Below, in pieces: positions 3,011 to 62,692 of a stretch of 64,000 nt of DNA; the first letter of the stretch is position 1, and every line of letters begins with the position of its first letter. The stretch lies in the IMG/VR virus record IMGVR_UViG_3300027708_000034, positions 18,332 through 82,331 of that record. One strand, 5' to 3'. The position numbers were made by a program, and so were the translations under genes. The notes below the pieces were generated by a model. The model did no database searches and was not told the DNA's origin. It saw nothing but the letters and a program-made list of their open reading frames with translations. The DNA comes from a virus (Duplodnaviria; Heunggongvirae; Uroviricota; Caudoviricetes).

Positions 3011-6000
3011 ATGAGCCGACAATGTATATCGAATTTACCAGCATTAACCAATGCTACTGCTGCTGAAACCAAATTCATCGTACTGGATAGTACTGTTGAG
3101 CAGACATTAACAGTAGCAAGAGCACAGGCGTTACTAGCAACTCCTGGTCCAACTGGACCGCAGGGACCGCAAGGTGTCATAGGATATGCCGGTAGTAGGG
3201 GATATTCTGGAAGTTTGGGATATGCTGGATCTGTTGGTCCACAAGGTCCTGCCGGCCCACAGGGTCCTATTGGGTTTACTGGCAGTCGTGGATTCTCGGG
3301 ATCAGTCGGCGCCCAAGGCCCTTTGGGATTTACGGGCAGCAGGGGATATGCGGGCAGCATTGGATATACAGGAAGTGCAAGCACCGCCTCCGGATATGCT
3401 GGCAGTAAGGGCCCAACGGGTCCACAGGGGCAAATAGGCTATGCTGGAAGTGCAGCAGCCAATGCTAACACCACACAAAATATCGCCGGCGGCGCTGCTG
3501 GATCCATTCCGATTCAAGCAGCCACCAGCAGTACTACATTTATTCCATTGGGTGCTGTAGGGACTCTACTATATTCAGATGGTACTACTGCTACTTGGAT
3601 TAGCACTAGTACTATAATACCAGCATCTTCGGGACAAGCTGGCAAGGTATTGGTTAACTGTATTGCAGCAAACAGCGCCACAACATACTATCCTGGATTG
3701 TTTTCAACTCCGGGAGTATACGACACTCCCGGAATTAGCACAAAACTATCATTTGTTGCATCCACAGGTGTCTTATCGGCACCTAAGATACAATTAGGCA
3801 ATGGAGCAGTAGTTCAAGATGGTACTAACGGATCATTGACCTTCGGCTCAGCAACATCTAATCAAGGGGTCAATGCTGTCGCTATCGGTAAATGTGCAGG
3901 TAAGACTAGCCAAGGCGCAGCCGCTATTGCAATTGGTTGCAAGGCCGGAGTTACTAGCCAAGCCGCTAACAGCATTATATTAAATGCATCTAGTCAAACT
4001 GTAAATTCCAGTGTGGCTGGATTTTTTGTAGCGCCTGTTAGACGTGATAGTACTTGTGCCGGAACAGCTTATTCAATATACTATAATACTGCCACTAGCG
4101 AAGTAACGTATTCTGCTACTGTTCCCGCTGGATATACGGGTAGTGCAAGCACCGCAGCTGGATATATAGGCAGTAGAGGGCCGACAGGTCCACAAGGTCC
4201 ATCGGGGCCTACTGGTCCAACGGGCCCACAAGGGCCATTGGGATATACTGGTAGTATTGGTCCGACTGGTGTAGGACTCAGTGGTTATTTTGGATCAAGA
4301 GGATACACTGGGTCAGTTGGCCCGACTGGGCCTCAAGGTGCTATCGGTTATACAGGCAGCATGGGAACCACAGGCACTACTGGTTATTCGGGGTCAATAG
4401 GGGTGCAGGGCCCACAAGGATATGCGGGCAGTAGAGGTTATACTGGTAGCCAAGGCTCCACTGGAACTACTGGTTATTCAGGGTCAATAGGTGCAGGCAT
4501 TGCACTCAAAGGCACCGCTGCAACTACAGGTACTGGATATTCGGGAATTTATGGAGTCGTACCCCAAGGAACTGCCGTACAAGGCGATGCTGTTTTAATC
4601 AGTTCAAACGAACATTTATGGATCAGTAGCGGTGTTAGTGGCGGCCCAAGCAACCCGTGCGGATGGTCAGACGGTGGAAGTCTAGCTGGACCGCAGGGAC
4701 CGCAGGGATATACAGGATCTGCTGGCGCAGTGGGGCCGCAGGGCCCGCAAGGAATTACCGGCCCGCAGGGACCACAGGGATATACAGGATCTGCTAGCAC
4801 TGCCAGTGGATATGTTGGCTCAACAGGACCAACCGGTCCAACTGGTCCGCAGGGGCCTATAGGGTATGCTGGATCTGCAGGTGCAGCCAGTACAATGAAT
4901 TTCAAAGGAACTGTACTTGGTGTTACCTGTTTGCCAAAAACAGGACAGACTGTTGGTAATGCATGGGTAGTTTACAATGGCGGTTCACCAGGTAGTGGAA
5001 AAAGTTCCAACGGATCTACTTGGTTCTACGTCAATGGCGCAAGTGATGCGGGAAGATGTGTAAGTTGCGGTCCTTATTATGGATTTATTTACATTGGAAA
5101 CTTTACCGGGTATACTGGTAGTAAAGGTGACCTAGGATATTCCGGATCAGCTGGGCCGCAGGGACCTTTAGGATACTCTGGCAGCGGCGGCGGCTTTGGC
5201 TGCAGAGGATATACTGGCAGCATCGGTTATGCTGGCAGTGCTGGATATTGGGGTTCTACAGGCTATGTAGGTAGCCAAGGGACTTCATTTAACATCGTTG
5301 GTACAGTAGCAGGATACTTAAACTTGCCCGGATCAGGATCTGCAGGTGACGGATATGTTACTCAGAACAACAATACTATTTGGTTGTATAAAGGCTATGC
5401 TGGATCTGCATATGCAGGTTGTGGCAGTGCATTGGGCAAACAATATAATGGATGGTTGGCTATCGGACTATTGGGTGGCACTGGTTATACTGGCAGTGCA
5501 GGATACAATGGTAGTGCAGGATATACAGGATCTGCTAGCACCCAAGCTGGTCCACAAGGACCAGCCGGATATTCAGGCAGTGCAGGAGCCGCAGGTTGCA
5601 AGGGCTGTATAGGATACACCGGCAGTGCTGGAACATCGGGTATAGGTACCAAAGGATGTATTGGATTTACCGGTAGTGCAGGTGCTGGTTACGGCGGTAG
5701 TATTGGCTCAACTGGTTATACAGGCAGTGGTGGCGCTGGATATACAGGAAGCATAGGTAACGCCGGTCCACAAGGACCAATTGGATTTTCGGGAAGTGGC
5801 GGCGCTGGATACAATGGTAGTAGAGGATATGATGGATCAGTTGGTCCTAGTGGCCCAACTGGACCTACTGGACCACAGGGGTGTATGGGATACACAGGAT
5901 CTGCCAGCACCGCATCGGGGTATGTTGGTTCAACTGGATTTACTGGCAGTATAGGTAATTTGGGATATTATGGTAGTATAGGTTGCAGGGGATATACCGG

Positions 6001-6691
6001 ATCATCTGGTGCATTACCGTGCTGTGCCGGCCCTTGTAAACTCTACGCAAGAGTTTGGTGTAGTGGTCAAGTTAGAGGACCATTGTTATATCCAACTCTA
6101 GTGGCCAGATCAGGTACATGTACTGTCTACATGTCCGGAGCAAGTCCGTCAAACTTGTTTAGCTTCTGTGCTGCTAACGGTAAAGTAACAATTGGCGGGG
6201 CAGTATGTGCCAACGGCAACATAACCTCAGCTCAAGGCGTCCGCGCCTGCGGGTCCGTAACATCTGTGCAAAAGATGTATGCCCAAGGTGCATTGTGTGT
6301 CACTGGAAAAATCTGTGCATCATCATGTATTTCTACGCTGGGTAGTGTGATTGCCGCGGGCAACGTCATTGGTTATTGTGCAGCTTCTGATAGAAGATTA
6401 AAACAAAACATTAGACCAATCGCAGACGCGTTGGATAAAATTAGAACACTACAGGGTGTATTGTACGACTGGACTGACGAGTTCATGGAAACAGTCCCGG
6501 ATAATATTTCCAGACATGATACCGGATTGATTGCCCAGGATGTTCAGCAGGTCCTACCAGAGGTAGTGTTCCTCAGAGAAAACGGATACTTGGGTATTAA
6601 GTATGACAAAGTCGTAGGATTGATTGTACAAGCAATCAACGAACTAGCAGAAAAAGTAGATGCTATAGAGAAAACTCTAGCATCGGAATAA
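3011..6691 (+). CDS. Collagen-like tail fiber/tailspike protein with C-terminal S74 intramolecular chaperone (auto-cleaving) domain
   Basis: Many G-x-y triplet runs ([20 protein letters not shown]...). The C-terminus has the SDRRLKQNI...LQGVLYDW...[15 protein letters not shown] signature of the phage fiber chaperone/peptidase S74 domain. Confidence 0.85.
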
Positions 6692-7069: not shown

Positions 7070-7077
7070 TATAAATA
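7070..7077 (+). promoter_or_regulatory. T4-type late promoter motif TATAAATA (plus strand), 16 nt upstream of the 7094 ATG, with a GAGG SD
   Basis: Exact TATAAATA. Divergent from the 7011 motif, so the pair may form a divergent late promoter. Confidence 0.45.
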
Positions 7078-10391: not shown

Positions 10392-10399
10392 TATAAATA
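10392..10399 (+). promoter_or_regulatory. TATAAATA motif immediately upstream of the 10405 ORF
   Basis: Exact 8-mer 5 nt before the ATG. Either a late promoter for a transcript with almost no leader, or the real start is the second Met. Confidence 0.25.
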
Positions 10400-12727: not shown

Positions 12728-12737
12728 AGTAGTATAT

Positions 12738-13409
12738 TTATACCACTTCTGGGAACAGGACTTCGTCCACAAACCGCTTCATCTTAGATTCATCTATGCC
12801 CATACTGACCATGCTGCGTATGACATGGGGGTTTTGCTTTTGATAATAGCAATAACGGTTCTGCGCCATATGGAAATCTGCTAGATCCTGCTGCGTATTG
12901 CCTACATTTAATAGATAATAATCCAAGGTTCTTGTGGCCAGCTCGCATAGATTATTCAACTCTTCCTCGGTTGATACATTGCCAGCAGCAACCATGTTGG
13001 GACTAAAAATTTGCTGAGCCCATTCTGGCAGATTCCTAGACTTACCCCACTCGTAAAACAATGCTTCGGTCCCGAACCACTTCATCATAGGATGGGCAGG
13101 ATCTCCTGCTGCGCTGAAGTCGCAGAATGCACCTGTGATTTTATTGGGACCGCAGACTGCATCAAAGCCCCAAATAGGGCTAGGATCGTTAAAGTGTGGA
13201 AATACTGTAGAGTGCAGTATATAGATATTGTGGCTCTCCCTATGGTCTACGATTTCCACATGGGCTCTGCGATATCGCGGGCTGGTCCAAAGGTCATTGT
13301 GCCATTCATAATCACTACTGATCTTGCCGTGTACAGCCTCACCGGTGGCATTGAATCTCGATTTGATATCCTCAGCTAATTTTTCAATTTTGTCCCAAAC
13401 GTTCGCCAT
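12738..13409 (-). CDS. Ferredoxin-dependent bilin reductase (PcyA/PebS/PcyX family)
   Basis: WTSPRYRRAHVEIV...ILHSTVFPHFNDPSPIWGFDAVCGPNKITGAFCDFS aligns with the PcyA core (YQTPQFRKMHLEL...ILHCVMFPEP...[20 protein letters not shown]). Confidence 0.85.
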   Translation of the reverse strand: MANVWDKIEKLAEDIKSRFNATGEAVHGKISSDYEWHNDLWTSPRYRRAHVEIVDHRESHNIYILHSTVFPHFNDPSPIWGFDAVCGPNKITGAFCDFSAAGDPAHPMMKWFGTEALFYEWGKSRNLPEWAQQIFSPNMVAAGNVSTEEELNNLCELATRTLDYYLLNVGNTQQDLADFHMAQNRYCYYQKQNPHVIRSMVSMGIDESKMKRFVDEVLFPEVV

Positions 13410-14791: not shown

Positions 14792-16693
14792 TTATACAGT
14801 TTCCTTAGCCTCTGCGTCAACGACTCCATCAGCCGCATCCTTTTTAGCCTGTTCTTCAGCCTTCTTGGCTGCTTCCTCGGCTTGGTTTTTCTTAGCAGTG
14901 ACTGGGTTCATGGCTTGATAAAGTTTAGGAATAGTATCTTGGATGAGTTTTACATCATCGCCCGACATGGCATCCTCAAGCGCCTTGACCGCGTCTTCAG
15001 CAGTAGCACGTTCTTCTTCAGTGAGTTGGTCACTGTATTTTTCTAGATCCTCTTTGAATCCGTTCAATGTACCTTCTGCACGATTGCGTTCCTCAATCAA
15101 CTCGCGCTGCTTCTTATCTGCTTCAGCATTGAGTTCAGCATCTTGGACCATGCGATCGATTTCCTCTTTGGTCAATCCGCTGTCGGACTTGATAGTGATC
15201 TTGTTCTCTTTGCCTGTGCCTTTATCAGCTGCTTTGATATTCATGATACCGTTGGCATCGATATCTAGCGTGACTTCGATCTGTGGAACACCTTTGCGAG
15301 CAGGTGGGATGCCTTCTAATTTGAATTCGCCCAACAATTTATTATGCTGGACGAATTCACGCTCGCCTTGGAATACTTTGATGTCCACTGCAGATTGATT
15401 ATCTTCGGCTGTTGAGAACACTTGACTATGCTTGGTAGGAATAGTGGTATTCTTTTGAATCAACTTGGCCATCACCCCGCCCATGGTTTCGATACCAAGA
15501 CTCAATGGGGTAACGTCTAGCAATAGAACGTCTGTACGTCCACCACCTAGCACATCGCCTTGGATAGCAGCACCTGCGGCCACTGCTTCGTCTGGATTGA
15601 CGTCTTTGCGAGGAGCCTTGCCAAACAACTTCTCAACTGTTTCAACTACCTTAGGCATACGTGTCATACCACCGACAAGGATAACTTCGTCGATATCGCT
15701 GGCTGTGACTTTGGCATCTGCCATAGCTGTCTTGCATGGCTCGATACTGCGTTGGATCAGTTCGTCTACCAAACTTTCCAATTTAGCACGGGTCAACTTA
15801 ACGTTCATGTGTTTAGGACCTGATGCATCTGCTGTGATGTAAGGCAAGTTAACATCGGTCTGTGCTGAACTTGACAGTTCAATCTTGGCCTTTTCTGCTG
15901 CCTCTTTAAGACGTTGTAGTGCCAACATGTCTTTCTTGAGATCAACGCCGTTGTCCCGCTTGAATTCATCGACCAAGAAGTCCATGATACGTTGGTCAAA
16001 GTCTTCACCACCCAGGAATGTATCACCGTTGGTGCTTAGTACTTCGATTTGTTTCTCGCCATCAACATTGGCAATTTCGATGATGGATACGTCAAATGTA
16101 CCGCCACCCAAGTCATATACAGCAATCTTGCGATCACGCTTGTCTGCTTTATCAACACCATAGGCCAGTGCAGCAGCAGTAGGTTCGTTGATGATACGCA
16201 ACACTTCAAGTCCAGCGATCTTACCTGCATCTTTAGTTGCTTGACGTTGCTGGTCGTTGAAGTAGGCAGGAACTGTGATAACAGCCTGCGTGACTTCGTG
16301 TCCCAAATAGTCCTCAGCAGTCAGTTTCATCTTGCGAAGTACTTCAGCTGAAATCTGTGGTGGGGCAAGTTCTTGTTCGTTGGCCTTGACCCAAGCATCG
16401 CCATTACTGGCTTCGATGATTTTGTAGGGCATCAGATCGATGTCCTTCTGCACAGCCTGTTCTTTGAACTTACGTCCAATCAAACGCTTGGCTGCATAAA
16501 TTGTGTTTTTTGGATTGGTGATTGCTTGTCGTTTGGCACTTGCACCTACCAGAATTTCATCGCTAGCATATGCAATGATGCTGGGAGTAGTCCTCGCACC
16601 TTCGCTGTTTTCGATTACTTTGGGGATACCGTTTTCAATAACGGCTACGCATGAATTGGTTGTACCGAGGTCGATACCGATTACTTTACTCAT
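14792..16693 (-). CDS. dnaK: Molecular chaperone DnaK (bacterial-type Hsp70)
   Basis: N-terminus [31 protein letters not shown], and an acidic, lid-like C-terminus. Full length 633 aa. Confidence 0.95.
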
Positions 16694-20023: not shown

Positions 20024-20446
20024 ATGTTATCTAAAATTAAGAAAGTACTTTGGTTTACAGCAGGTATGCTGTTTTTAGGCCTGGCCTATATTGGTATTAT
20101 CGTTCCTGGAATTCCTTGGTCGACACCAAGTCTTATTGCAACATACTGCTTCGCCCGTAGCAGTAAACGGTTCCACGACTACATGATGAACCATAAACTA
20201 TTTGGACCGTTCATTCGTGATTGGCAAGATGGTAGTGTATTTCCAACCAAAGGCAAATGGTTCATGTTTATCAGCATGGATTGTAGCCTTGTGATCTTTT
20301 GGTTTGCTACACAGAACTGGAAAGCTACGATGGGCATGGGCATATTCTTTGCTCTGATTATACTATGGGCAAGCCGATTGCCAGGCAGCAAAGAAGAAGC
20401 TCTACGCAGAAAAGAAGCTGGCGAAAAATTAGGCTGGTTTCGTTAA
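20024..20446 (+). CDS. DUF454/YbaN-like inner membrane protein
   Basis: GIIVPGIPWSTPSLIATYCFARSSKRFHDYMMNHKLFGPFIRDWQ parallels E. coli YbaN ([39 protein letters not shown]). Confidence 0.7.
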   Translation: MLSKIKKVLWFTAGMLFLGLAYIGIIVPGIPWSTPSLIATYCFARSSKRFHDYMMNHKLFGPFIRDWQDGSVFPTKGKWFMFISMDCSLVIFWFATQNWKATMGMGIFFALIILWASRLPGSKEEALRRKEAGEKLGWFR

Positions 20447-21213
20447 ATCTTATAATCGTAGTTGACCTGAGTCCAACGATTATTGTTCCATCTAGAATTA
20501 ATCTGTGCCATAGATCCTGCACGGCGATCATGATAAAATAATCTCGCATCAGTCGAATTGAACACACTGTCCACTAGCCAGAAAAAGCTGGTGTTGACGC
20601 AATGGATTTCTTTGGCATTCTTTATCAAATCAATGTAGTGCATCATGTTGTTGGTCGTGCCAATGTTGACTTCGATGATTTTCATATTGGGCATATTGCT
20701 TGCTTGCCTAAAGCCCTCTAGATCGATACCCATTCCGTTCTTATGATCACCAGTCTGTTGATTCCATAATACATAATCCGTCACGCCGCCAGTCAATTGT
20801 TGATACAGTTCTCGAGATCCGGGAATGTGATCGGGCAAGACAAATTCTCTATATCGCTGGGAGTACAATATATCAAAGTATTCATAAATTTGACGATCCC
20901 AATTAACTGATGACTGCACATATCTAGGAGGATTGTCCCTATGCACCATAGTGGGATAGATTGGGGGTGATTCTATCCTAGTTAAATTATGCAGTTTGAT
21001 AAATTCATTTTCGTGAAGTGGGCTGTCAAAGCCCACTACTTCGATGTTGGATTCATCAGCATATAACGACGACAAAGTATCAAAGTATTCACGACGGCAT
21101 GGCAAGTACATCTTCTCTGTGGTTCTAGCTACTATCCTAGAAATTGGATAATAGACGAAGGCATCGCCTAAAGACATCGCACCGCAGAAAAATAACCTGT
21201 TCAATATCCTCAC
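20443..21213 (-). CDS. Hypothetical protein (256 aa)
   Basis: Long ORF. No motif recognised. Confidence 0.5.
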   Translation of the reverse strand: MRILNRLFFCGAMSLGDAFVYYPISRIVARTTEKMYLPCRREYFDTLSSLYADESNIEVVGFDSPLHENEFIKLHNLTRIESPPIYPTMVHRDNPPRYVQSSVNWDRQIYEYFDILYSQRYREFVLPDHIPGSRELYQQLTGGVTDYVLWNQQTGDHKNGMGIDLEGFRQASNMPNMKIIEVNIGTTNNMMHYIDLIKNAKEIHCVNTSFFWLVDSVFNSTDARLFYHDRRAGSMAQINSRWNNNRWTQVNYDYKI

Positions 21214-27295: not shown

Positions 27296-27324
27296 ATTAT
27301 ACAGTCGAAAGCATTAAAAGTCAA
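27296..27324 (-). promoter_or_regulatory. Sigma70-type promoter with extended -10 (minus strand TTGACT-N15-TGTATAAT), upstream of the ParB-like gene
   Basis: -35 RC of 27319-27324, -10 RC of 27296-27301, preceded by TG. Located immediately after the porin terminator. Confidence 0.5.
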
Positions 27325-27353
27325 TAAAAAAGGCAGTAAAAACTGCCTTTTTC
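27325..27353 (-). terminator. Rho-independent terminator of the porin gene (hairpin aggcagt-aaaaa-actgcct plus T-run on the minus strand)
   Basis: 7-bp GC-containing stem, then U-tract, 17 nt downstream of the porin stop. Confidence 0.6.
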
Positions 27354-30321: not shown

Positions 30322-30479
30322 GATTCAACTCCGAAATGTTCTTTAATCCTACGGTTAATCTCCGTTAATACCTCTTCGGTAACATCTTTGACCTTGCCTG
30401 TTAGAACACAATGTTCGTGTTCCCAAGTGCAGATTGTTTTACTTTTTCCATCTTGCTCAACCACAACCGATAGTTTCAT
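30318..30479 (-). CDS. 53-aa protein with the C-terminal IKEHFGVES motif (short member of the FGVE family, not in the ORF track)
   Basis: Translates as MKLSVVVEQDGKSKTICTWEHEHCVLTGKVKDVTEEVLTEINRRIKEHFGVES. Shares the 17-nt 3' DNA repeat ttcaactccgaaatgtt with two paralogs. Confidence 0.4.
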   Translation of the reverse strand: MKLSVVVEQDGKSKTICTWEHEHCVLTGKVKDVTEEVLTEINRRIKEHFGVES

Positions 30480-30736
30480 TCTTCAACTCCGAAATGTTTT
30501 ATTACACGGACGATGTCTTTTTGTAAAAGATTAGCACCATTCAAATCTCCCTTGTCTAGTAGTTGCTTACGATCTTTTCCAAGAGTAAGTTCTAAACATT
30601 CCCTAACAATCAACTCGGCGAACTTTGGCAAAAAGATTTCGTTATAGAGACGTCTGTTTCTACGACTTTCATCTTCATATTCTGCCTTGATTTCTTCTTC
30701 AGCCTGTGACCAAAGTTCTTTAATTCGTTCGTTCAT
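30476..30736 (-). CDS. Small protein, MNERIKEL.../KFAELIV/FGVEE family member
   Basis: MNERIKELWSQAEEE...KFAELIVRECLE...HFGVEE. Confidence 0.55.
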   Translation of the reverse strand: MNERIKELWSQAEEEIKAEYEDESRRNRRLYNEIFLPKFAELIVRECLELTLGKDRKQLLDKGDLNGANLLQKDIVRVIKHFGVEE

Positions 30737-30996
30737 TCTTCAACTCCGAAAATGTTCTTAATCGTTTCACCGGCATCAAACATACCATCTTCCCAACCCA
30801 CTTGATAATCAGTGCTTTTGTCCCGACGCAATTCCTGTGTATCAAGAACCGTATATCGCAATTCTTCGAGACATTCCTTGACAATCAACTCGGCGAACTT
30901 TTCTCGGTCAAACACTTCAAAGGTAAGTGGATTGTAAGGTGTAGGGCCTTGAATAGAGGTAGCCTGCTCAGCAAGTTGTTTAATTCGTTCGTTCAT
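30733..30996 (-). CDS. Small protein, MNERIKQLAEQA/KFAELIV/FGVEE family member
   Basis: MNERIKQLAEQATS...KFAELIVKECLEE...IFGVEE. ATGA overlap with the previous member. Confidence 0.55.
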   Translation of the reverse strand: MNERIKQLAEQATSIQGPTPYNPLTFEVFDREKFAELIVKECLEELRYTVLDTQELRRDKSTDYQVGWEDGMFDAGETIKNIFGVEE

Positions 30997-31245
30997 TTAC
31001 ATTCCTTCACATTTAACGCCGCCGCCATTATCACCAATCACCTGCTGTGGAAATCCACGTTGACCGATAATGAATTTATAACCATCTATACAGCGTGATT
31101 CAGTCAAGCCATTAATGCCCATGCTAACATTGCTGGAACCGTTTTGAGATACAGCAAAAAAGCCAAAGACCGCTATAACAATAATAAAACCTATTGCTAT
31201 AACCATCATCAATTCAATTAAAGTAAATCCGTGATTAGTTTTCAT
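30997..31245 (-). CDS. Type IV pilin/pseudopilin-like protein (prepilin-type N-terminal cleavage/methylation domain), 82 aa
   Basis: MKTNHGFTLIELMMVIAIGFIIVIAVFGF: G^FTLIE with Glu at +5 and a hydrophobic alpha1 helix. Short C-terminal domain with one Cys pair. Confidence 0.6.
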   Translation of the reverse strand: MKTNHGFTLIELMMVIAIGFIIVIAVFGFFAVSQNGSSNVSMGINGLTESRCIDGYKFIIGQRGFPQQVIGDNGGGVKCEGM

Positions 31246-31481
31246 TCTTTAACTCCAAATTGGCGTGCGATTCTATATGCCACAATGCCTACCGCATTTG
31301 ATTCTTTAACAAGTTTGGCATTTACCAGTTGATCATCCCAATTTTTAGCAATATTCAAACAGTCTCGCACAATCAACTCGGCAAACTTACTTGCTGTAAA
31401 ATCGGAATAATCAATCCCCTCGGCACCAAAGCGAGCACCAGCCTTGTGTAGAAGGCTATCTATTAGTTGTTGATTCATCAT
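31242..31481 (-). CDS. Small protein, KFAELIV/FGVKE family member
   Basis: ...SKFAELIVRDCLNIA...RQFGVKE. First gene after the promoter at 31512-31540. Confidence 0.5.
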   Translation of the reverse strand: MMNQQLIDSLLHKAGARFGAEGIDYSDFTASKFAELIVRDCLNIAKNWDDQLVNAKLVKESNAVGIVAYRIARQFGVKE

Positions 31482-31511
31482 TCAACTCCAAAATCGCTTA
31501 GTTAAAACAAT

Positions 31512-31546
31512 ATTATACACAAAAAGAAGGGGCCTGTCAAGGCCCC
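31512..31546 (-). promoter_or_regulatory. Compact terminator-promoter module: the hairpin ggggcc-TTGACA-ggcccc terminates the SPFH gene, and its loop supplies the -35 of a TTGACA-N17-TATAAT promoter for the paralog/pilin cassette
   Basis: Minus-strand hairpin followed by TTCTTTTT. -35 in the loop (RC of 31535-31540). -10 TATAAT (RC of 31512-31517). Confidence 0.55.
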
Positions 31547-31564
31547 TGTGTTGTTTATCGACGA

Positions 31565-32422
31565 TTACTTACCAATGTTCATCAGGGTCTTTGTATCGCC
31601 GCCCAACATTGTGCTAGGCAATGCACCGTTCCACTTTTCAATCCACTGCAACTTGACATAGTTCTCACCACCGTTGCTTTGGATAGCAGCGGCTTGGATC
31701 GCGATGGCCTTGGCTTCACCATCTGCTTGTGCGATACGACTTGCAGCCTCAACTTTGATACGCTCCAGGTCTTGTTGAGCCTTGGCAGTTTGTTGCACAG
31801 AGATCACCTTGGCTTCGATGGCCTTTTGATATTCAGGACTGAATCCAAAATTCACCAAACTAATATTGCTCACCGTGATGTTGAACGGAGCCATCTTTTC
31901 CACCAAGTGCTGTAGAATTTCTGCACTGACCAAATCACGTTTGGTAACCAATTCTTCACTGGTGTAGTGACCAGTCACACTCTTGAACGCTTCGTTGATG
32001 CCAGGGCCAAGAACCTTTTCATCCACATTGAGACCGAACTCTTTATAGATATGTGGTACTTTGAGTGGATCTAGACGATAGTTAACCACGATGTCAGTAT
32101 GCACAACCTGCAGGTCTTTGGTACCTGCATTGGCACCTTTTAGTTCCGCCTTCTGTAGACGAACATCCACATCCTTGATTGAACTGATTGGATTCACAAA
32201 GTGAACACCTTCAGTCAAGGGCAAGGGATTGACTTCACCAAGTGTAACCTGTACACCAGTGTGTCCTGCACTGATCACAGTAAATGCTGAAACTCCAATT
32301 GATATGAGAATAATTGCTAGACCTGTAAGTACGCCCAACGCAATCTTTTTGAATTCTGACATAAAAATAATAGCACCTGCTACTAGCAAACCTACGATGA
32401 CACCCACAAGAATTGTGAACAT
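31565..32422 (-). CDS. SPFH/band-7 (prohibitin/HflC-like) membrane protein
   Basis: N-terminal TM helix. SPFH core (QVVHTDIVVNYRLDPLKVPHIYKEFG...) and a C-terminal coiled-coil alanine-rich region. Confidence 0.8.
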   Translation of the reverse strand: MFTILVGVIVGLLVAGAIIFMSEFKKIALGVLTGLAIILISIGVSAFTVISAGHTGVQVTLGEVNPLPLTEGVHFVNPISSIKDVDVRLQKAELKGANAGTKDLQVVHTDIVVNYRLDPLKVPHIYKEFGLNVDEKVLGPGINEAFKSVTGHYTSEELVTKRDLVSAEILQHLVEKMAPFNITVSNISLVNFGFSPEYQKAIEAKVISVQQTAKAQQDLERIKVEAASRIAQADGEAKAIAIQAAAIQSNGGENYVKLQWIEKWNGALPSTMLGGDTKTLMNIGK

Positions 32423-32445
32423 GATATTCCTTTGTTAAAAATTAA

Positions 32446-32479
32446 ATTATACACAAAAAGAAAGGGCCCGTCAAGGCCC
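32446..32479 (-). promoter_or_regulatory. Second compact terminator-promoter module (hairpin gggcc-TTGACG-ggccc, T-run, -10 TATAAT), near-identical in architecture to 31512-31546. Promoter for the SPFH gene.
   Basis: -35 in the loop (RC of 32469-32474), 17-nt spacer, -10 (RC of 32446-32451). Hairpin followed by TTTCTTTTT on the minus strand. Confidence 0.55.
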
Positions 32480-32574
32480 TTTGGTTGTTTTGATAATAAG
32501 GTAAGTCCTACCTCACCAAAGCCTAAGCGGCGATGGAATATAACTCGTCGTTTGCAGTTATGAAATTTGCTTGA

Positions 32575-32802
32575 TTAACGGTCATCGCCTACCGTGTTGC
32601 CGTCGCCACTATCTAGCCCAATCGATCCTGTGTCAGGCCCAACATAAAGAAACTTTGGAATAGGATTATTAAATCCTTTAAATCCTGTAAAACGATATCC
32701 TAGATTAGGAATATCCCAAAGTAAAGGTGCCCAACACACTCTTTTTACTGTGTCATCTTTGTCTACTACAACAAAATACTGTTTTACTTTTTCCAATTTC
32801 AT
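32575..32802 (-). CDS. Small hypothetical protein (ATG at 32802; the track shows a TTG start one codon upstream)
   Basis: ORF. Preceded by a GC-rich structured leader. Confidence 0.4.
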   Translation of the reverse strand: MKLEKVKQYFVVVDKDDTVKRVCWAPLLWDIPNLGYRFTGFKGFNNPIPKFLYVGPDTGSIGLDSGDGNTVGDDR

Positions 32803-32894
32803 CAAATTTCCTTATGGTGGACCTGCCGGGCACTGCCCCCGGGTCTTGGCCTCCTTCGTTTTGAAGGGATTACAACAATAACTCTTACTTATCT

Positions 32895-33131
32895 TCAATG
32901 TCTCACAGCAAACATACTGCTGATCATCGCTCTTACCAAAACTAAGTCACTTTCACATGTGACCACTATGGGTTCATCCAAATCTTCGTCATCTTCCCAT
33001 GCCTCTTTTGGAAACTGTAAAAAATCGAAAATAGTTCTAAAGGTCACAGTCCTACCTTGTGTGTAGGCCAATTCTATCACATCCACTATAGAATTTACTA
33101 TTTGTTGAGTTTTAAAATCCAAAGGAGTCAT
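32895..33131 (-). CDS. Small acidic hypothetical protein
   Basis: ORF only. Confidence 0.4.
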   Translation of the reverse strand: MTPLDFKTQQIVNSIVDVIELAYTQGRTVTFRTIFDFLQFPKEAWEDDEDLDEPIVVTCESDLVLVRAMISSMFAVRH

Positions 33132-33268
33132 GATATCTTCTAATAAATTTGACGGACTCCCCAGGGCGTGTATAGAGCCTCCGCCTAGCCAAGTAGCTTC
33201 GCACTACCCCAAGCCGCTATGCAACTTTATCCCTGCAAGATGCAATATTTATAAGTAATTCTCCATTC

Positions 33269-33685
33269 TCAAAAATTATCAGTGTGCATCACAGGTGACT
33301 CCTTCAAGATCAACATAACTTCCTCTTTGGTAGTGTAGATTAGATGATGTTGTTCTAATATTGCTCTACGCTCGTGATCTGCCAAGGCCAGCCAGTCTTT
33401 GACCTCGTCATAACTGCCCCAGGCTTGATTGGGCATGTGTGCAGTTATCCATCCTGTCAGTTTTTTAAGAGCAGGAATGGTGTTACTAGGGTGGCTGGAC
33501 CTCACGGCATCCATGAAGTTATTAGCCAGCACCGCAGTAAAGAAACTGCCTGGCTCAAATCCATTAATCAAATATTCATACATAGGGCCCATGTAGTCCA
33601 ATTCGTCCACGCCCCATTCAGTGAAAGTCTCCCGCAGTCGTTGTTTACTATGATCAGACAGTTTCATTTTTACCCTACTTATCAC
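33269..33685 (-). CDS. Hypothetical protein (138 aa)
   Basis: ORF. 11-nt overlap with the next gene. Confidence 0.45.
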   Translation of the reverse strand: MISRVKMKLSDHSKQRLRETFTEWGVDELDYMGPMYEYLINGFEPGSFFTAVLANNFMDAVRSSHPSNTIPALKKLTGWITAHMPNQAWGSYDEVKDWLALADHERRAILEQHHLIYTTKEEVMLILKESPVMHTDNF

Positions 33686-34007
33686 TATTTTTAATAATTT
33701 CCATCAATTCTTTATTACGCAGGTCTTGTTCTTTTCGAGCTCGCTTGGCATTGAGATTTTTATCAATGGTGAAAAGATCGTAATCCCGTGCCCACATGAT
33801 CCCTTGCATGAAATGATCAGCACCCTCAAGTGAGCCAGCAAATAGCTGAGCATCACGGGTGTAGATGGGCAGCGAGTCCTGATCCTTGGGCACCAGTGCC
33901 ACATTTTCGCCAAAATTATCATAATGGTAAGGAGCCAATTTCATACCTAATCGATCAGCTCGCAGTTCCAGTTCTCGGATCTGTTTGATTACGTTCCAGC
34001 CTGCCAT
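33675..34007 (-). CDS. Hypothetical protein (110 aa)
   Basis: ORF only. Confidence 0.45.
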   Translation of the reverse strand: MAGWNVIKQIRELELRADRLGMKLAPYHYDNFGENVALVPKDQDSLPIYTRDAQLFAGSLEGADHFMQGIMWARDYDLFTIDKNLNAKRARKEQDLRNKELMEIIKNSDK

Positions 34008-34008
34008 G

Positions 34009-34182
34009 TTAGTAAGTCTCTTTTACGATGTCGAACAGTTCCGGCGGCCACTTGGCTTTGAACTCCTCAGTTTTGACATAGTCATTGTAGTCCTTGGCAT
34101 TGAAAAACACCTTGTGGAAGGCAGTTATAAATGTGCCTTTGGGGTTGATTGTGAGATACACTGATTTTGCTTTGCCTGCCAT
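34009..34182 (-). CDS. Small protein (57 aa, MAGKAKSVYLTINPKG...), not in the ORF track
   Basis: Continuous minus-strand frame with an ATG at 34182 and TAA at 34009, filling the gap between neighbouring genes. Confidence 0.3.
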   Translation of the reverse strand: MAGKAKSVYLTINPKGTFITAFHKVFFNAKDYNDYVKTEEFKAKWPPELFDIVKETY

Positions 34183-34190
34183 GATAGTTC

Positions 34191-34331
34191 CTAAGTTAAA
34201 ACATTGTTGATAAAATCTAAAGCCATTTGCACCAATTCTGTAGTGATATTAAGTTTAGCAGCGATGTCTGACACTGTGAAATGCCTATCAGCTAATTCAC
34301 GTACTGCTAAAATAATATCTCTGCGGATCAT
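34191..34331 (-). CDS. Small protein (46 aa) with a helix-turn-helix-like segment (FTVSDIAAKLNITTELVQMAL), not in the ORF track
   Basis: ATGA overlap with the upstream gene stop at 34328-34330. HTH-like hydrophobic pattern. Confidence 0.3.
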   Translation of the reverse strand: MIRRDIILAVRELADRHFTVSDIAAKLNITTELVQMALDFINNVLT

Positions 34332-34564
34332 ACTACATGACCGAGAACAGTATAGATCAGTTGATCCAGTTCTGTTTGGTAATCTTGATTGCCCACTCTG
34401 CGTTTCAGCCAGATTGCTTCTAGCAATTCTTTAGAATCAAATTGACCGCTACTGGAACTGCATCCAGTCCATTCTCCTCGATCCTCTAACTCTTCGATAA
34501 GATCCTCGGTGTCGAACTCTGACAAGTCAACTTCAACATCTGTAGTAATTGTTCTATATGTCAT
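34328..34564 (-). CDS. Small acidic hypothetical protein
   Basis: ORF. Asp/Glu-rich. Confidence 0.4.
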   Translation of the reverse strand: MTYRTITTDVEVDLSEFDTEDLIEELEDRGEWTGCSSSSGQFDSKELLEAIWLKRRVGNQDYQTELDQLIYTVLGHVV

Positions 34565-35018
34565 GTTTTTCTTCCTTGGTTAGTTTACACATTAAAATAA
34601 AGTGATCGTATGCTTTCTTCACTGCTGGATTAGAGTATAACACATTTGCTTCCTTTTGTAAAGCCCTTAGGCCTGCTTGAACGATATCGTGTGTGCTGAC
34701 TCCATTCAATTGGTATAGTTCCTCACCAAACTCTTTGGCCAGTTTTCGCCATGCTCGGCGTTGTCCAGATGTAATTGGTGTCTTGCTTGGCTTCAGTTGA
34801 CTAGCATTATACATGGCCGTACTCATGGCTTCTTCAGCCACCCGCCCGGCAGCAATCATTCCAGCATAGTCCGGATCGATGTTGTACCTACGACTCCGTC
34901 CACCTGGATAGCACATGATGATGTGAGTACCTTTTGGAAAACTATCCAAGTAATCACTATCGTATTCGGCTACAGGAACATACCGTCCTCCGACCTTTTC
35001 ATAATACGTCTTCTTCAT
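34554..35018 (-). CDS. Hypothetical protein (154 aa)
   Basis: ORF only. Confidence 0.45.
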   Translation of the reverse strand: MKKTYYEKVGGRYVPVAEYDSDYLDSFPKGTHIIMCYPGGRSRRYNIDPDYAGMIAAGRVAEEAMSTAMYNASQLKPSKTPITSGQRRAWRKLAKEFGEELYQLNGVSTHDIVQAGLRALQKEANVLYSNPAVKKAYDHFILMCKLTKEEKHDI

Positions 35019-35443
35019 ATCTGTTCAATCTTTACACCCGATGACACAAGGAACTTAACACCGCCAGTGTCCCGATAAGAATTACGGTATAGTACGTGCC
35101 CAATGCCGCTTTGATGTATAAGTTTGGCACATTCCATACATGGAGCATGGGTAACGAACATAGTAGCACCCAAGCCACTGTTAGTAGATTTTGCCAATTT
35201 GGCGATTGCATTAGATTCTGCATGTAGTACCTCTGGTTTGGTTTTAAGTACAGGGCCCTTTGTATCATATCCTACAATATTTTCGCAGTTGTTATCCCAA
35301 CCTGCAGGCATGCCATTGTACCCGTAACTGATCACACAGTCGTCATTGACGATGACTGCACCCACTTGCAGTCTTTTAGCATGGCTAAGTTCAGCTGTGC
35401 GCTCAGCCCATGCCATGTAAAGATCTATGAATTTCTGTTTCAT
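35015..35443 (-). CDS. cd: dCMP deaminase (cytidine/deoxycytidylate deaminase zinc-binding family)
   Basis: HAESNAI ... THAPCMECAKLI (H-A-E and PCxxC zinc ligands). Size 142 aa as in phage dCMP deaminases. Confidence 0.85.
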   Translation of the reverse strand: MKQKFIDLYMAWAERTAELSHAKRLQVGAVIVNDDCVISYGYNGMPAGWDNNCENIVGYDTKGPVLKTKPEVLHAESNAIAKLAKSTNSGLGATMFVTHAPCMECAKLIHQSGIGHVLYRNSYRDTGGVKFLVSSGVKIEQI

Positions 35444-46510: not shown

Positions 46511-46518
46511 TATTTATA
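46511..46518 (-). promoter_or_regulatory. T4-type late promoter motif TATAAATA (minus strand), 26 nt upstream of the MKTIDF start
   Basis: Plus tatttata = minus TATAAATA in the 17-nt intergenic region. Confidence 0.4.
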
Positions 46519-48797: not shown

Positions 48798-48805
48798 TAT
48801 TTATA
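48798..48805 (-). promoter_or_regulatory. T4-type late promoter motif (minus strand GGCTATAAATA; the same GGCTATAAATA context as at 7011)
   Basis: Exact TATAAATA immediately after the terminator of the upstream gene. Confidence 0.45.
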
Positions 48806-48806
48806 G

Positions 48807-48837
48807 CCAAAAAGAAAGGGAGTTAAAAAACTCCCTT
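48807..48837 (-). terminator. Rho-independent terminator after the 145-aa gene (hairpin aagggag-ttaaaaaa-ctccctt plus TTCTTTTT on the minus strand)
   Basis: 7-bp stem followed by a U-tract. Confidence 0.6.
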
Positions 48838-55278: not shown

Positions 55279-55302
55279 TTGTTAAAATCCTTTTAATCTT
55301 CA

Positions 55303-57258
55303 TTACATTCCCAGTACTATGGACATTGCCACACTAAAACTTTTTAGACTGTTTACACTACTTATCGGTGTAGTACTGGTCTGGCCAGAAATCACTTTCA
55401 CAACATCTCCAGCTGATCTAGCCACAGTCAGTGTTATAGTAGTACCATTCAATGCTGTAAAATCTCCTGATCCAAACAGTATGCCATTTACATAAACTTG
55501 TGCAGTACCCGGAGTATATCCACTGGGAATAGTGAATACTGTTTGACCGGCAGTGGCTATTAGTTCTTGTATATTTAATGGTATGATCTGCTGTCCGTTG
55601 GTAAAGACGTTGCCGGCATACATGCTGCCGCCAATGCCAACCCCACCTGTTACGGTCAACGCACCAGTTAGTGTAGAACTAGCAGCGGTCAATCCAGATA
55701 TAGACATCCTAGACACACCACTGATAGTTCCACCAGCAACACCAGTAGTGGCAAAACTTGACGCATAAACAGTGCCGCCAAAGCCCGCTCCGCCAGCAAC
55801 GATCAACGCGCCGGTCTGTGTAGAAGTAGCCGATGTGGCATTGGTAACAGTAAATGCAGAGGTTACATTGCCAGTGACAGTCAAATTAGTGGCAGTTATG
55901 TTTACTGCTTGGAAACTGGTCACTCCGGTGATCGAACCGCCGGTGCCAGTTGTGGTATATGAGGTGGCTGTAACAACCGTGGCTACTATATTTGTGGCAC
56001 TGACATTTGTAGCATATAGATAAGAAACACATCTAATGACGCCAAGTCCAGAGCCTCCAACGAATCCCTGAGCATAGACAGTTCCACCAACACCCAAGCC
56101 GCCTGCTACCACTAGAGCGCCGGTCTGTGTAGAAGTGGCCGATGTGGCATTAGTAAGAGTGAATGCCGAAGTTACATTACCAGTGATGCTCAAATTAGTA
56201 GCAGTCACGGTACCAGTGACGTTGATGTTTAAACCAGAATATTGATTTACTCCGGTGATCACTCCAAGTCCACCCGATCCATAAAATGCAGCGGCGTAAA
56301 TATCACCGCCGATACCCACACCACCACGTACCTGCAGAGCACCTGTAGTGGTACTGGTACTCGAAGTGGTGTTCAATATTACGAATGTAGCTGTCGTACC
56401 AGTACTGGATGAGGAGGATGCCGCGGCATACAATCCAATAGTAGCAGTGGTGATGATCTGAGCGCCGGCAATGAATGAAGAAGTGCCGATATAAACAGCG
56501 CCACCGATGCCAACTCCGCCTGTTACTATCAATGCGCCAGTCGTAGTTGATGTTGATGTAGCAGTACTGGTTATTGTGGCCGTAGATGCTGACAAAAATC
56601 CAACACCGGTAATAAATCCACTGCCAGCTACACCGGCAGTTACGATACTGGTGGCGGTTATTACTCCACCAACAAATAATCCGCCGCCAACACCAACTCC
56701 GCCTACTACCTGTAGAGCACCTGAATTGGTACTGGTTGTGCTGGCAGTGCTGGAGATAACGAATGTGCCAGTAGTACCGGTACTGGCGGTGCCTGCCGCA
56801 GCATAAAGACCAATAGTGGCAGTGGTGATGATCTGTGCACCAGCGATGAATGACGCAGTTCCTATATAAACAGCACCACTGATACCAACGCCGCCAGTTA
56901 CCTGTAAAGCGCCAGTTGTAGTCGATGTAGATGCAACATTGCCAATTATTGTGGCAGTGGATGCTGATATGAAAGCAGCACCAGTGATAGATCCAGCTCC
57001 AACACCACCTGTTACAATACTAGTAGCAGTTATCACACCGCCAACATATAAGTTACCGCCAATACCCGCCCCGCCCCTCACTTGCAGAGCACCTGTAGTG
57101 GTACTAGTAGACGATGCCGTGCTAGAAACTACTAATGTAGTGGTAGCGGTTACTGCTCCAGCAACTCTAGTCCAAGAGTTGGTGGCTGAACTATAGGTAT
57201 AGGTAATACCGTTTAGTGAGGCAGTTTGTCCATTAGTGGGTGATAAGGGGAATGACAC
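55303..57258 (-). CDS. Fiber protein with about six tandem repeats of roughly 50 aa (TSTTTGALQVxGGVGIGGxVYxG...ATSIVTGGVG)
   Basis: Internal periodicity visible in the translation. Thr/Gly/Ala/Val-rich beta-solenoid-like repeats. Confidence 0.6.
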   Translation of the reverse strand: MSFPLSPTNGQTASLNGITYTYSSATNSWTRVAGAVTATTTLVVSSTASSTSTTTGALQVRGGAGIGGNLYVGGVITATSIVTGGVGAGSITGAAFISASTATIIGNVASTSTTTGALQVTGGVGISGAVYIGTASFIAGAQIITTATIGLYAAAGTASTGTTGTFVISSTASTTSTNSGALQVVGGVGVGGGLFVGGVITATSIVTAGVAGSGFITGVGFLSASTATITSTATSTSTTTGALIVTGGVGIGGAVYIGTSSFIAGAQIITTATIGLYAAASSSSSTGTTATFVILNTTSSTSTTTGALQVRGGVGIGGDIYAAAFYGSGGLGVITGVNQYSGLNINVTGTVTATNLSITGNVTSAFTLTNATSATSTQTGALVVAGGLGVGGTVYAQGFVGGSGLGVIRCVSYLYATNVSATNIVATVVTATSYTTTGTGGSITGVTSFQAVNITATNLTVTGNVTSAFTVTNATSATSTQTGALIVAGGAGFGGTVYASSFATTGVAGGTISGVSRMSISGLTAASSTLTGALTVTGGVGIGGSMYAGNVFTNGQQIIPLNIQELIATAGQTVFTIPSGYTPGTAQVYVNGILFGSGDFTALNGTTITLTVARSAGDVVKVISGQTSTTPISSVNSLKSFSVAMSIVLGM

Positions 57259-57271
57259 CAGTAGTTCCTAT

Positions 57272-57637
57272 TTAGAGAGGCATCCAGTCAGTAGCTGCTT
57301 CGTCCCATTGATACATTTTGCCATCAGTAGGATACGGTGTCGGTGCTTCCCAAAGCCAATTAGTAGCTTCGCTGATAGTCCATGAATTGAAGGGCCTCGG
57401 CGGGTAAAAAACATCGTGTTTCGAATCGTAGATATAGCCAATACCTGCATAATTTCCCCGTAACGCAACACCGCCATCCGGTTCACCGTTGGCATTATAA
57501 TGCACATTCCCTCGGGTATTATAGCTGGTCTGTATCCATACTCCCGGCGTATCGTCTACATAACTGTCGATAAATTCTTGTTCTGCTACGATAACTCTCT
57601 GTACTTTACCGTATGCAACTTTTGCGAAATGACTCAT
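57272..57637 (-). CDS. Hypothetical protein (121 aa)
   Basis: ORF. Preceded by the conserved 24-nt BglII-palindrome element. Confidence 0.45.
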   Translation of the reverse strand: MSHFAKVAYGKVQRVIVAEQEFIDSYVDDTPGVWIQTSYNTRGNVHYNANGEPDGGVALRGNYAGIGYIYDSKHDVFYPPRPFNSWTISEATNWLWEAPTPYPTDGKMYQWDEAATDWMPL

Positions 57638-57661
57638 TTTACTATTCCTTTTTACTATTTA

Positions 57662-57686
57662 ACTCAGATGCAGATCTGTTAGAAAG
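57662..57686 (-). repeat. Conserved upstream element ACTCA(G/C)ATGCAGATCTGTTAGAA (second copy at 62672-62697), containing the palindrome CAGATCTG
   Basis: A 24-nt match with one mismatch between the two loci. In both it sits 25-50 nt upstream (minus strand) of a gene start and is followed by TAAATAGTA...AAAGGA. Confidence 0.5.
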
Positions 57687-57700
57687 ATATATTTCCTATA

Positions 57701-58627
57701 TTAGTAGTTTTTCTTAATGACAAATCTACCGCCGCTGCCACTTCCGGAACTGGTTCCTCCAGTTCCTGCTGTACCTCTATCAGCATCGGCATTATTACCC
57801 GCAACACTGCCGCTACCGGCAGTGGTGGTGCCACTGGTAATGCCCGCGCCGCCGATGTAACCAGATCCACCTCCGGCACCCGCCCCTGCGGTGTCACCGC
57901 CACCTCCACCACCGCCAAAATATCCGCCACCTCCACCACCGCCGCCTGCGTCGCCGGAACAAAGGATACCGCCGCCGCCATTACCAAATCCCAATCCGCC
58001 GGCGGCCGAAACCCCGCCACCACCTGATCCATTACCTCCATTACGACCGCTTCCAGCAACTCCTGTTCTTCTAGATCCAACCCCGCCGGCACCCGCTGCA
58101 GATTGTGTTCCGCCATAACCTCCGATGCTGCCACTACAGGTACCGTTAACACCTGTGGCACCACCACCGGCACCACCGCCGCGTGTGCCGCTGCTGTCGC
58201 CAGATCCTCCACCACCACCGGCTACAATAATTGCTGTTGATCCAACAGCGGTCTGCATGCCTGTACCAGCGCCACCGCCTGATCCAACACGGCTTGCGGC
58301 GGTTCCAGTACCGCCGCCACCTACTATAATCTGATAATTGGTTCCAGCACTAAATGTAAAGTTACCGGTTGAATTTCCACCACCACCGCCGGCGGCACCG
58401 CTGGCTGATCCACCGCCGCCGCCCCATAGCTTGAGTGTCGTAGGAACACTATTACCGGTGGCACTTATAGTATAGGTCGTATTGGCAGTGGTTATTACTA
58501 GATCGCCATCTCCTGCCAAATCCCAAGTTGTTTTCCCAGAAACTGCTGGAGAAATCGTGAGTGTAAGAGGAAATGCTCCCATGGTTAAGGTTCCTCCTAT
58601 TCTAACGCCGCTGCCGCCGATGATCAT
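57701..58627 (-). CDS. Glycine-rich protein, MIIGG family member (308 aa)
   Basis: N-terminus MIIGGSGVRIGG. More than 45% Gly with GGGGG runs. Confidence 0.55.
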   Translation of the reverse strand: MIIGGSGVRIGGTLTMGAFPLTLTISPAVSGKTTWDLAGDGDLVITTANTTYTISATGNSVPTTLKLWGGGGGSASGAAGGGGGNSTGNFTFSAGTNYQIIVGGGGTGTAASRVGSGGGAGTGMQTAVGSTAIIVAGGGGGSGDSSGTRGGGAGGGATGVNGTCSGSIGGYGGTQSAAGAGGVGSRRTGVAGSGRNGGNGSGGGGVSAAGGLGFGNGGGGILCSGDAGGGGGGGGYFGGGGGGGDTAGAGAGGGSGYIGGAGITSGTTTAGSGSVAGNNADADRGTAGTGGTSSGSGSGGRFVIKKNY

Positions 58628-58641
58628 AATATATATATTTC

Positions 58642-59547: not shown

Positions 59548-59575
59548 AATGTATATTTCCTATATTAATAATTTT

Positions 59576-61729: not shown

Positions 61730-61746
61730 TTGTATTTCCCTTATTT

Positions 61747-62649: not shown

Positions 62650-62692
62650 TGTGTCAACTGTCCTTTGTACTATTTACTCACATGCAGATCTG

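Follow-up and report, generated by a model that had tools for sequence, protein, structure and literature searches.

We analysed a 64,000-nt stretch of the IMG/VR virus record IMGVR_UViG_3300027708_000034 (the window, to which all coordinates refer) and focused on two near-identical elements, E1 and E2, which lie on either side of a gene for an SPFH/Band-7 membrane protein. That the feature is real and well conserved is confirmed by the analyses described below. On the strength of sequence logic and comparison with other phages, we consider it probable that E1 and E2 are punctuation cassettes of the promoter-early stem-loop (PeSL) type, in which an intrinsic terminator and an early promoter of the host sigma-70 type share the same ~35 nt. 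The predicted genes at ~29–37 kb all lie on the minus strand, and the elements are hence read on that strand. Their parts are the following.

31528..31547, minus strand: E1 putative terminator hairpin, AGGGGCCT-TGAC-AGGCCCCT, 8 bp with 6 G-C pairs
31535..31540, minus strand: E1 -35 box TTGACA, spanning the closing pair of the hairpin and its loop
31518..31527, minus strand: E1 T-run TCTTTTTGTG, serving as predicted terminator U-tract and as part of the 17-nt promoter spacer
31512..31517, minus strand: E1 -10 box TATAAT, after a 17-nt spacer; predicted start at ~31505
32461..32482, minus strand: E2 putative terminator hairpin, AAAGGGCCT-TGAC-GGGCCCTTT, 9 bp, also the predicted 3'-terminal hairpin of a transfer-messenger RNA (tmRNA)
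32469..32474, minus strand: E2 -35 box TTGACG, spanning the closing pair and the loop
32452..32460, minus strand: E2 T-run CTTTTTGTG, predicted U-tract and spacer
32446..32451, minus strand: E2 -10 box TATAAT, after a 17-nt spacer; predicted start at ~32439

The original prediction of two near-identical elements of about 35 nt flanking the SPFH gene, each with a -35 box in the loop of a terminator hairpin, a T-run, a 17-nt spacer and TATAAT, describes both sites correctly, with the refinement that the -35 box also covers the closing base pair. From the hairpin to the -10 box, 32/35 positions are identical, and the likeness extends over 45 nt (AAACAAC...TATAAT; 40/45 identical). Two of the differences form a single compensatory pair, G-C in E1 and A-T in E2. 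The search for the core that accompanied the prediction, run here on the window, finds GGCCTTGACRGGCC without mismatch exactly twice, at E1 and E2; with two mismatches allowed, shuffled sequences yield 0.44 matches on average. In a scan of the window E1 scores 12/12 and E2 11/12 against a sigma-70-type consensus, which may not be that of the host, and both elements are also called in a terminator scan. The hairpins alone fold with predicted energies of -14.8 (E1) and -13.3 kcal/mol (E2), and with their flanks at -17.2 and -15.0 kcal/mol, corresponding to z = -3.8 and -2.8 relative to shuffles. A GC-rich hairpin with an immediate U-run on the sense strand downstream of a gene, the description of an intrinsic (Rho-independent) terminator, is present in both cases: the U-runs are UUCUUUUUGUG and CUUUUUGUG, and the elements are located 17 nt past the SPFH stop codon (E1) and 41 nt past that of the tmRNA tag (E2). 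Upstream of each hairpin is the sequence AAACAAC(A/C).A. Downstream of the -10 box, a ribosome-binding site is followed by an ATG at a distance of 24–31 nt from that box, with GGAG preceding the start of a 79-aa gene at E1 (ATG at 31481) and AAGGA preceding that of the SPFH gene at E2 (ATG at 32422).

The exact 16-mer GGGCCTTGACRGGCCC has 83 matches in IMG/VR, representing 63 unique contexts. A rough chance estimate for a collection of this size is about as high as the raw count, which is therefore no evidence by itself; only the flanking T-run and -10 box separate modules from chance matches. If six or more T among the following 9 nt are taken as a T-run, and a match of at least 5/6 at exactly 17 nt as a -10 box, both signals accompany the 16-mer in 41 of the 63 contexts, a T-run with a weaker or shifted -10 box in 7, and neither in 15, which are GC-rich and look like chance matches. 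A -10 box without a T-run was found in none of the 63. A promoter spacer has no need of a T-run, and the constant presence of one wherever there is a -10 box therefore speaks for selection on terminator function. In addition, the outer stem pairs covary among these contexts (AAA/TTT, ATA/TAT, AGA/TCT, AAT/ATT).

Hairpin formation around the -35 box was also evident when the stem sequence was left free. A scan with the pattern TTGACR-N6-TT-N-TTTT-N4-TATAAT returned at least 112 unique promoters. Among the matches listed, to which all numbers for this set refer, the -35 box lies at the centre of a hairpin of 6 bp or more in 39/112, compared with 3.5 ± 1.7 in shuffles of the 5' flank (maximum 10 in 300), and dozens of these stems are mutually unrelated in sequence. 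In an ungapped alignment, 60.7% of the cells in the proposed stem are paired (51.0 ± 1.2% expected), 164 cells show a double change (108 ± 10 expected), and the covariation score is 0.320 compared with 0.195, each value exceeding those of all 500 shuffles. The proposed register is superior to every slid register in both paired cells and covariation score.

As a megablast search of cultured phages with the 2.3-kb region gave no match, relatives were sought through the SPFH protein, which at 58–95% identity led to 63 IMG/VR contigs, the longest of 364 kb (L numbers designate the IMG/VR loci compared). A positional profile of hairpins around every promoter-like site with a score of 10/12 or more proved noisy, many of these sites being located inside coding sequence; counts stratified by score, with flank-shuffle nulls, were used in its place. 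In the loci so retrieved, a hairpin of at least 6 bp is centred on the -35 box in 8 of 29 perfect promoters, compared with 1.8 ± 1.3 in flank shuffles (maximum 5 in 200). Upstream of the SPFH gene, the same fused element occurs in L018 and L019. In L001–L008 and L022, the fused element is built on an AT-rich stem of unrelated sequence (ACAATAG-ACAA-CTATTGT); its loop contains TAGACA, and TATACT is found 17 nt further on. In L009 the two signals are separate, a classical terminator preceding a TTGACA-17-TATACT promoter; other relatives have a promoter alone, and in many more distant ones no signal is recognisable and the SPFH gene abuts the upstream coding sequence. Downstream of the SPFH gene, fused elements are built on other stems again, namely GGGTC/GGACC in L035, GGCACAT/ATGTGCC in L043, GCGGTT/AACCGC and GCGATT/AATCGC in L038 and L039, and AGAATTCGG/CCGAATTCT in L020. 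Tandem terminator–promoter pairs are found at the SPFH flanks of L009, L018, L028 and L049. The occurrence of fused and separate layouts at an orthologous position indicates that both functions are kept whatever the layout. Together, the co-occurrence of T-run and -10 box, the covariation of the stems and the separate terminator and promoter in relatives support the predicted fusion of a terminator with a promoter.

The geometry is also present in cultured phages. Coliphage G17/121Q carries AAAGCTCGTC-TATT-GACGGGCTTT-TCTTTTATGTG-TATAAT, which is annotated only as a terminator, and further examples occur in Synechococcus phage MA10 and Pseudomonas phage Kremar. Weak BLAST matches in Acinetobacter phage AbTZA1, Xanthomonas phage PhiXhv-12 and Listonella phage phiHSIC proved to be plain terminators with other loops and were rejected as fused modules.

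Several considerations weigh against a dual function. The phage is uncultured, and we infer termination, initiation, early timing and efficiency at E1 and E2 from sequence logic and comparison. The SPFH-anchored sample over-represents just those intergenic sites that are at issue, and the stem-free pattern, having imposed a T-run, cannot test the T-run itself. Moreover, related -35 hairpins in L020 and in the GCGGTT...AACCGC group have no good U-run, so that not every member of the family would be an efficient terminator and the hairpin may have another or an additional role.

Which unit would E2 terminate? The region directly upstream of it contains a tmRNA gene, and the units next to the two elements include these genes.

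32523..32877, minus strand: permuted (two-piece) tmRNA gene with the tag ANDELYSIAA*, identified with RF04321 and ARAGORN
31565..32422, minus strand: SPFH/Band-7 membrane protein gene, 285 aa (Pfam Band_7, PF01145, E=1.3e-29)
31242..31481, minus strand: 79-aa gene, the first of the unit predicted to start at E1

The RF04321 covariance model matches with 122.6 bits (gathering score 47; E=2e-23), and ARAGORN likewise calls a permuted tmRNA with the tag ANDELYSIAA*. The beta_tmRNA model remains below its threshold (70 vs 84 bits), and its alignment reaches 32459, with the E2 hairpin as the terminal hairpin. A 76-aa open reading frame with a TTG start at 32575..32805 (minus strand) is spurious, as this stretch is the permuted tmRNA gene. 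Sub-threshold Rfam matches over E1 and E2 (STnc50, Atu_C8, SraG and others) were put down to generic resemblance among terminator hairpins and disregarded. In five other IMG/VR tmRNA lineages (L083, L097, L108, L123 and L157), the module lies 42–47 nt after the tag stop codon. The tags in this set are ANDSQYSMAA, ANDEQFALAA, ANDSQFALAA (in two lineages) and AKTSTFEYFTVEGFTADEGLVAA, and the genes downstream of the tmRNA and its module differ between lineages. Because the module recurs at a similar distance from the tag stop codon across tmRNA lineages, and the beta_tmRNA alignment ends on the E2 hairpin, we interpret E2 as a predicted tmRNA terminator that contains the promoter of the following gene.

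Modules of this kind also occur beside transfer RNA genes. The GGGCC-TTGACR-GGCCC module is located ~25 nt upstream of a tRNA with a CUA anticodon in L113, L115, L121, L125 and L128, and ~70 nt upstream of one in L151; such a tRNA is an amber suppressor, labelled tRNA-Pyl by ARAGORN. In L101 the same module precedes tRNA-Met. The placement beside CUA tRNAs is a hint that phages of this group may suppress stop codons.

We propose the following model for transcription through this region. An incoming RNA polymerase would transcribe the GC-rich hairpin and the U-run (UUCUUUUUGUG) and be released. In the same duplex, the loop and the closing pair would present the -35 box (TTGACA/G), with the 3' arm and the T-run forming the 17-bp spacer ahead of TATAAT, and host polymerase would start a fresh transcript ~7 nt beyond the -10 box. 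Since this start lies downstream of the hairpin, the new transcript would not contain it. A 12/12 promoter at 35478, upstream of a group of small genes and the tmRNA gene, would drive a unit that ends at E2. E2 would then initiate a monocistronic SPFH mRNA of ~0.9 kb, the SPFH gene being the sole gene between the two elements, and this mRNA would end at E1. E1 in turn would start a unit comprising the 79-aa gene, a pilin-like gene of 82 aa and two paralogues. The notion of a compact boundary between consecutive early genes thus finds support, with the correction that E2 would end a permuted tmRNA gene and not a protein-coding one. For the further proposal that the two units are separately tunable we find no support, given that the promoters are near-identical (TTGACA and TTGACG, with the same spacer and -10 box).

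The small proteins encoded at 30476-31481 (minus strand) are paralogues of 79, 87 and 86 aa that have in common the motif ...KFAELIV(R/K)(D/E)CL... and a C-terminal FGV(E/K)E. The 82-aa protein encoded among them carries a type IV pilin N-terminal methylation motif (N_methyl, PF07963, E=2.5e-7).

Could E1 and E2 instead be mainly recombination modules, with which cassettes such as the SPFH gene are inserted, excised or swapped together with their own promoter and terminator? Such a function would add to the regulatory one, and we regard it as possible, although less probable than not, as their chief purpose. The two elements are 45-nt direct repeats on both sides of one gene, and gene content around SPFH is strongly mosaic. 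Among the relatives, those closest to the window (SPFH proteins 90–95% identical) have the SPFH gene joined directly to a homologue of a 154-aa gene, and ~2.1 kb comprising six small genes and the tmRNA gene are absent; in further relatives the SPFH neighbours differ again (L001–L063 compared with window positions 31200-35100). On the tmRNA side, L097 and L157 match L108 at 78–82% identity, which drops to background immediately past the -10 box, and the tmRNA with its module precedes different genes in L083 and L108. Mini-circles flanked by PeSLs have been demonstrated in RB49/phi1 (PMC2839356). Against this, just two near-identical copies are present in 64 kb, and the shared stretch measures 45 nt compared with ~100 nt in the PeSLs of RB49. 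A relative with the exact junction expected after SPFH excision (tmRNA, module, 79-aa gene) was sought among the relatives and not found. Breakpoints in intergenic regulatory sequence are, in any case, to be expected because rearrangements are tolerated there. As a secondary role, by analogy with PeSLs, the elements are likely to provide short homologous patches at which gene cassettes would be exchanged.

A second alternative is that the elements are promoters only and that the hairpin is a by-product or acts at the level of DNA, for example as a cruciform or by conferring supercoil sensitivity at the -35 box, without ending any transcript. We judge this improbable for E1 and E2, though possible for relatives that lack a U-run. 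Some related hairpins do not have a convincing U-run (L020 and L017/L038/L039/L052), and the PeSL hairpins of RB49 lie in the spacer, also without a U-run. E1 and E2, on the other hand, combine hairpin and U-run as in a canonical intrinsic terminator, the T-run accompanies the -10 box without exception, L009 has an ordinary terminator at the same site, and E2 lies at the end of a stable-RNA gene, which needs a defined 3' end.

More improbable still is that the inverted repeat is an operator over the -35 box, bound by a dimeric regulator of phage or host that shuts the early promoters, with no terminator formed in the RNA. Repressor operators are classically laid out as a perfect palindrome centred on a -35 box, and T4-like phages close down their early promoters as infection proceeds. 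The stems, however, are unrelated in sequence (GGGCC, GGGTC, GCGGTT, GGCACAT, ACAATAG, GGAGTG, GGGGGTG and others), with only the pairing kept through compensatory changes, and a sequence-specific protein would not tolerate such diversity. An operator would not require the T-run that follows the hairpin wherever a -10 box is present, and the E2 hairpin aligns as the terminal hairpin of the tmRNA model. Finally, two ordinary terminators that happen to resemble promoters can be dismissed: T-rich tails and AT-rich sequence after terminators readily yield weak -10-like matches, but not consensus scores of 12/12 and 11/12 with a 17-nt spacer, a -10 box of at least 5/6 at exactly 17 nt in 41/63 core contexts in IMG/VR, and a core for which shuffles with two mismatches give 0.44 matches.

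How do fused terminator–promoter cassettes of this kind relate to known systems? PeSLs have been described in the T4-like phages RB49/phi1, PST/T4 and nt-1/KVP40 as composite cassettes of a sigma-70 promoter and a stem-loop, with A/T-rich sequence upstream and a ribosome-binding site downstream (Arbiol et al. 2010, PMC2839356; Comeau et al. 2014, PMC4122927). In reporter assays they were strong promoters and terminators (PMC2839356), and a part in modular shuffling and in the formation of mini-circles has been attributed to them (PMC2839356, PMC4122927). Five positional subclasses are distinguished, one of which has the stem-loop overlapping the -35 box (PMC2839356). E1 and E2 share with PeSLs a near-consensus early promoter (TTGACA-N17-TATAAT) and a GC-rich stem-loop as predicted terminator or attenuator, with an A/T-rich stretch upstream and a ribosome-binding site and start codon downstream; PeSLs are repeated within a genome and flank small accessory genes in plastic regions of T4-like phages, and E1 and E2, two copies in the window, likewise lie in a plastic region of what is probably a T4-like phage. 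Specifically, the features found in both are a sigma-70-type promoter, a stable G/C-rich stem-loop, and AAACAAC(A/C).A upstream with a ribosome-binding site and ATG downstream. The stems of the nt-1 PeSLs (A3-4 G3-loop-C3 T3-4) resemble the AAAGGGCC...GGCCCTTT of E1 and E2.

PeSLs occur in many copies, concentrated in plastic regions and conserved over ~100 bp. In the 64 kb analysed here, the near-identical 45-nt element is present twice, in a region that is plastic, alongside a tandem module and a remnant that consists of a hairpin only. The tandem module, at 27296-27353 (minus strand), is an unfused terminator–promoter pair in which a 12-bp hairpin, GAAAAAGGCAGT-TTTT-ACTGCCTTTTTT, adjoins TTGACT-17-TATAAT. 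The hairpin at 21017-21037 (minus strand), AGTGGGCT-TTGAC-AGCCCACT with 8 bp, is the third with a TTGAC loop; it has no T-run and no -10 box at 17 nt, lies inside the predicted open reading frame 20443..21213, and may be a decayed half module as described for PeSLs, or chance. A composite of another type occurs at 48798-48837 (minus strand), where a terminator hairpin, AAGGGAGTT-TTTT-AACTCCCTT, and its T-run are directly followed by the T4-type late-promoter motif TATAAATA, such that the terminator is fused with a late rather than an early promoter.

The differences from PeSLs are mainly of geometry. In the 50-kb plastic region of RB49 that we scanned, the dominant hairpin, GGGGATC..GATCCCC, is placed inside the 17-nt spacer, or a hairpin covers the -10 box, with no U-run, and no GC-rich hairpin centred on the -35 box was found. 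In E1 and E2, unlike this dominant type, the -35 box forms the loop, and the spacer consists of the 3' arm and a canonical U-run, giving the anatomy of a textbook intrinsic terminator. Their conservation spans 45 nt instead of ~100 nt, with two copies in 64 kb, and E2, unlike PeSLs, doubles as a putative tmRNA gene terminator. E1 and E2 thus appear to be of the same kind as PeSLs, in a different and more compact geometry. The classical tandem terminator–promoter regions of many phage early regions have the same two functions in the same order; relative to that layout the signals of E1 and E2 overlap fully, saving ~20 nt compared with L009. Permuted two-piece tmRNA genes are known from aquatic T4-like phages such as methylophage Melnitz, where the gene is likewise found in the early region and is bounded by predicted terminators (PMC9004378). 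That report describes no promoter within the tmRNA terminator, whereas here, in six tmRNA lineages, the loop of the putative terminator coincides with the -35 box of the next gene. In the literature outside the PeSL papers, we found nothing specific on a -35 box inside a terminator loop.

The source of the window is probably an uncultured aquatic T4-like myovirus. This assignment rests on a 1049-aa virion protein that is 52% identical to its counterpart in the T4-like cyanophage S-CAM1, and on enrichment of the T4 late-promoter motif TATAAATA, for which the window contains 10 sites (4.2 ± 1.5 expected), including 7070-7077 and 10392-10399 on the plus strand and 46511-46518 and 12735-12742 on the minus strand. 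Several of these sites precede a gene start by a few nt, a placement that suggests T4-like late transcription. Gene products recognised in the window are a ribonucleotide reductase, an exonuclease and DnaK, together with collagen-like tail fibres and proteins resembling the baseplate wedge, and PHROG matches include baseplate wedge, long tail fibre and NrdA/NrdB; no T4 core genes such as those for gp23 and gp43 were found within the 64 kb. The full-length DnaK/Hsp70 homologue (14792-16693, minus strand) is 66–68% identical to dnaK in several phage-labelled records, and genes similar to it are also present in Lak megaphages. Repetitive structural genes at 3011-6691 (plus strand) and 55300-64000 (minus strand) encode a 1226-aa collagen-like (G-X-Y) tail fibre and several Gly-rich repeat proteins, and these dominate the direct-repeat families of the window.

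The composite promoter/stem-loop design is already known in kind from T4-like phages (PMC2839356, PMC4122927), and the present finding refines a known theme and overturns nothing. New here are the apparent prevalence of this geometry in environmental phages, its ties to phage tmRNA and tRNA genes, and the interpretation of E2 as a tmRNA terminator. The annotation upstream of the SPFH gene is corrected accordingly, a permuted tmRNA gene replacing the 76-aa reading frame at 32575..32805 (minus strand). We speculate, as a possibility less probable than not, that the cassette with the -35 box in the loop and the U-run as spacer might constitute a distinct, widespread class of portable, mobile regulatory elements in aquatic and some enteric phages (T4-like phages, coliphage 121Q/G17, Pseudomonas phage Kremar). 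Beyond local compaction, such elements would sit preferentially on stable-RNA genes (permuted tmRNA, amber-suppressor tRNA and tRNA-Met) and recombine between genomes together with downstream cassettes such as that of SPFH.

If the dual function holds true, 35 nt would suffice to end one transcript and to start the next at full consensus strength, and the cassette would represent a natural minimal insulator part for synthetic biology. For uncultured phages, a simple annotation rule may follow, in which a hairpin around TTGACA, a T-run and TATAAT mark the point where one transcription unit gives way to the next. Documented until now in a few cultured T4-like phages, the PeSL concept would in this way be extended to a large set of environmental contigs and linked to tmRNA and tRNA genes.

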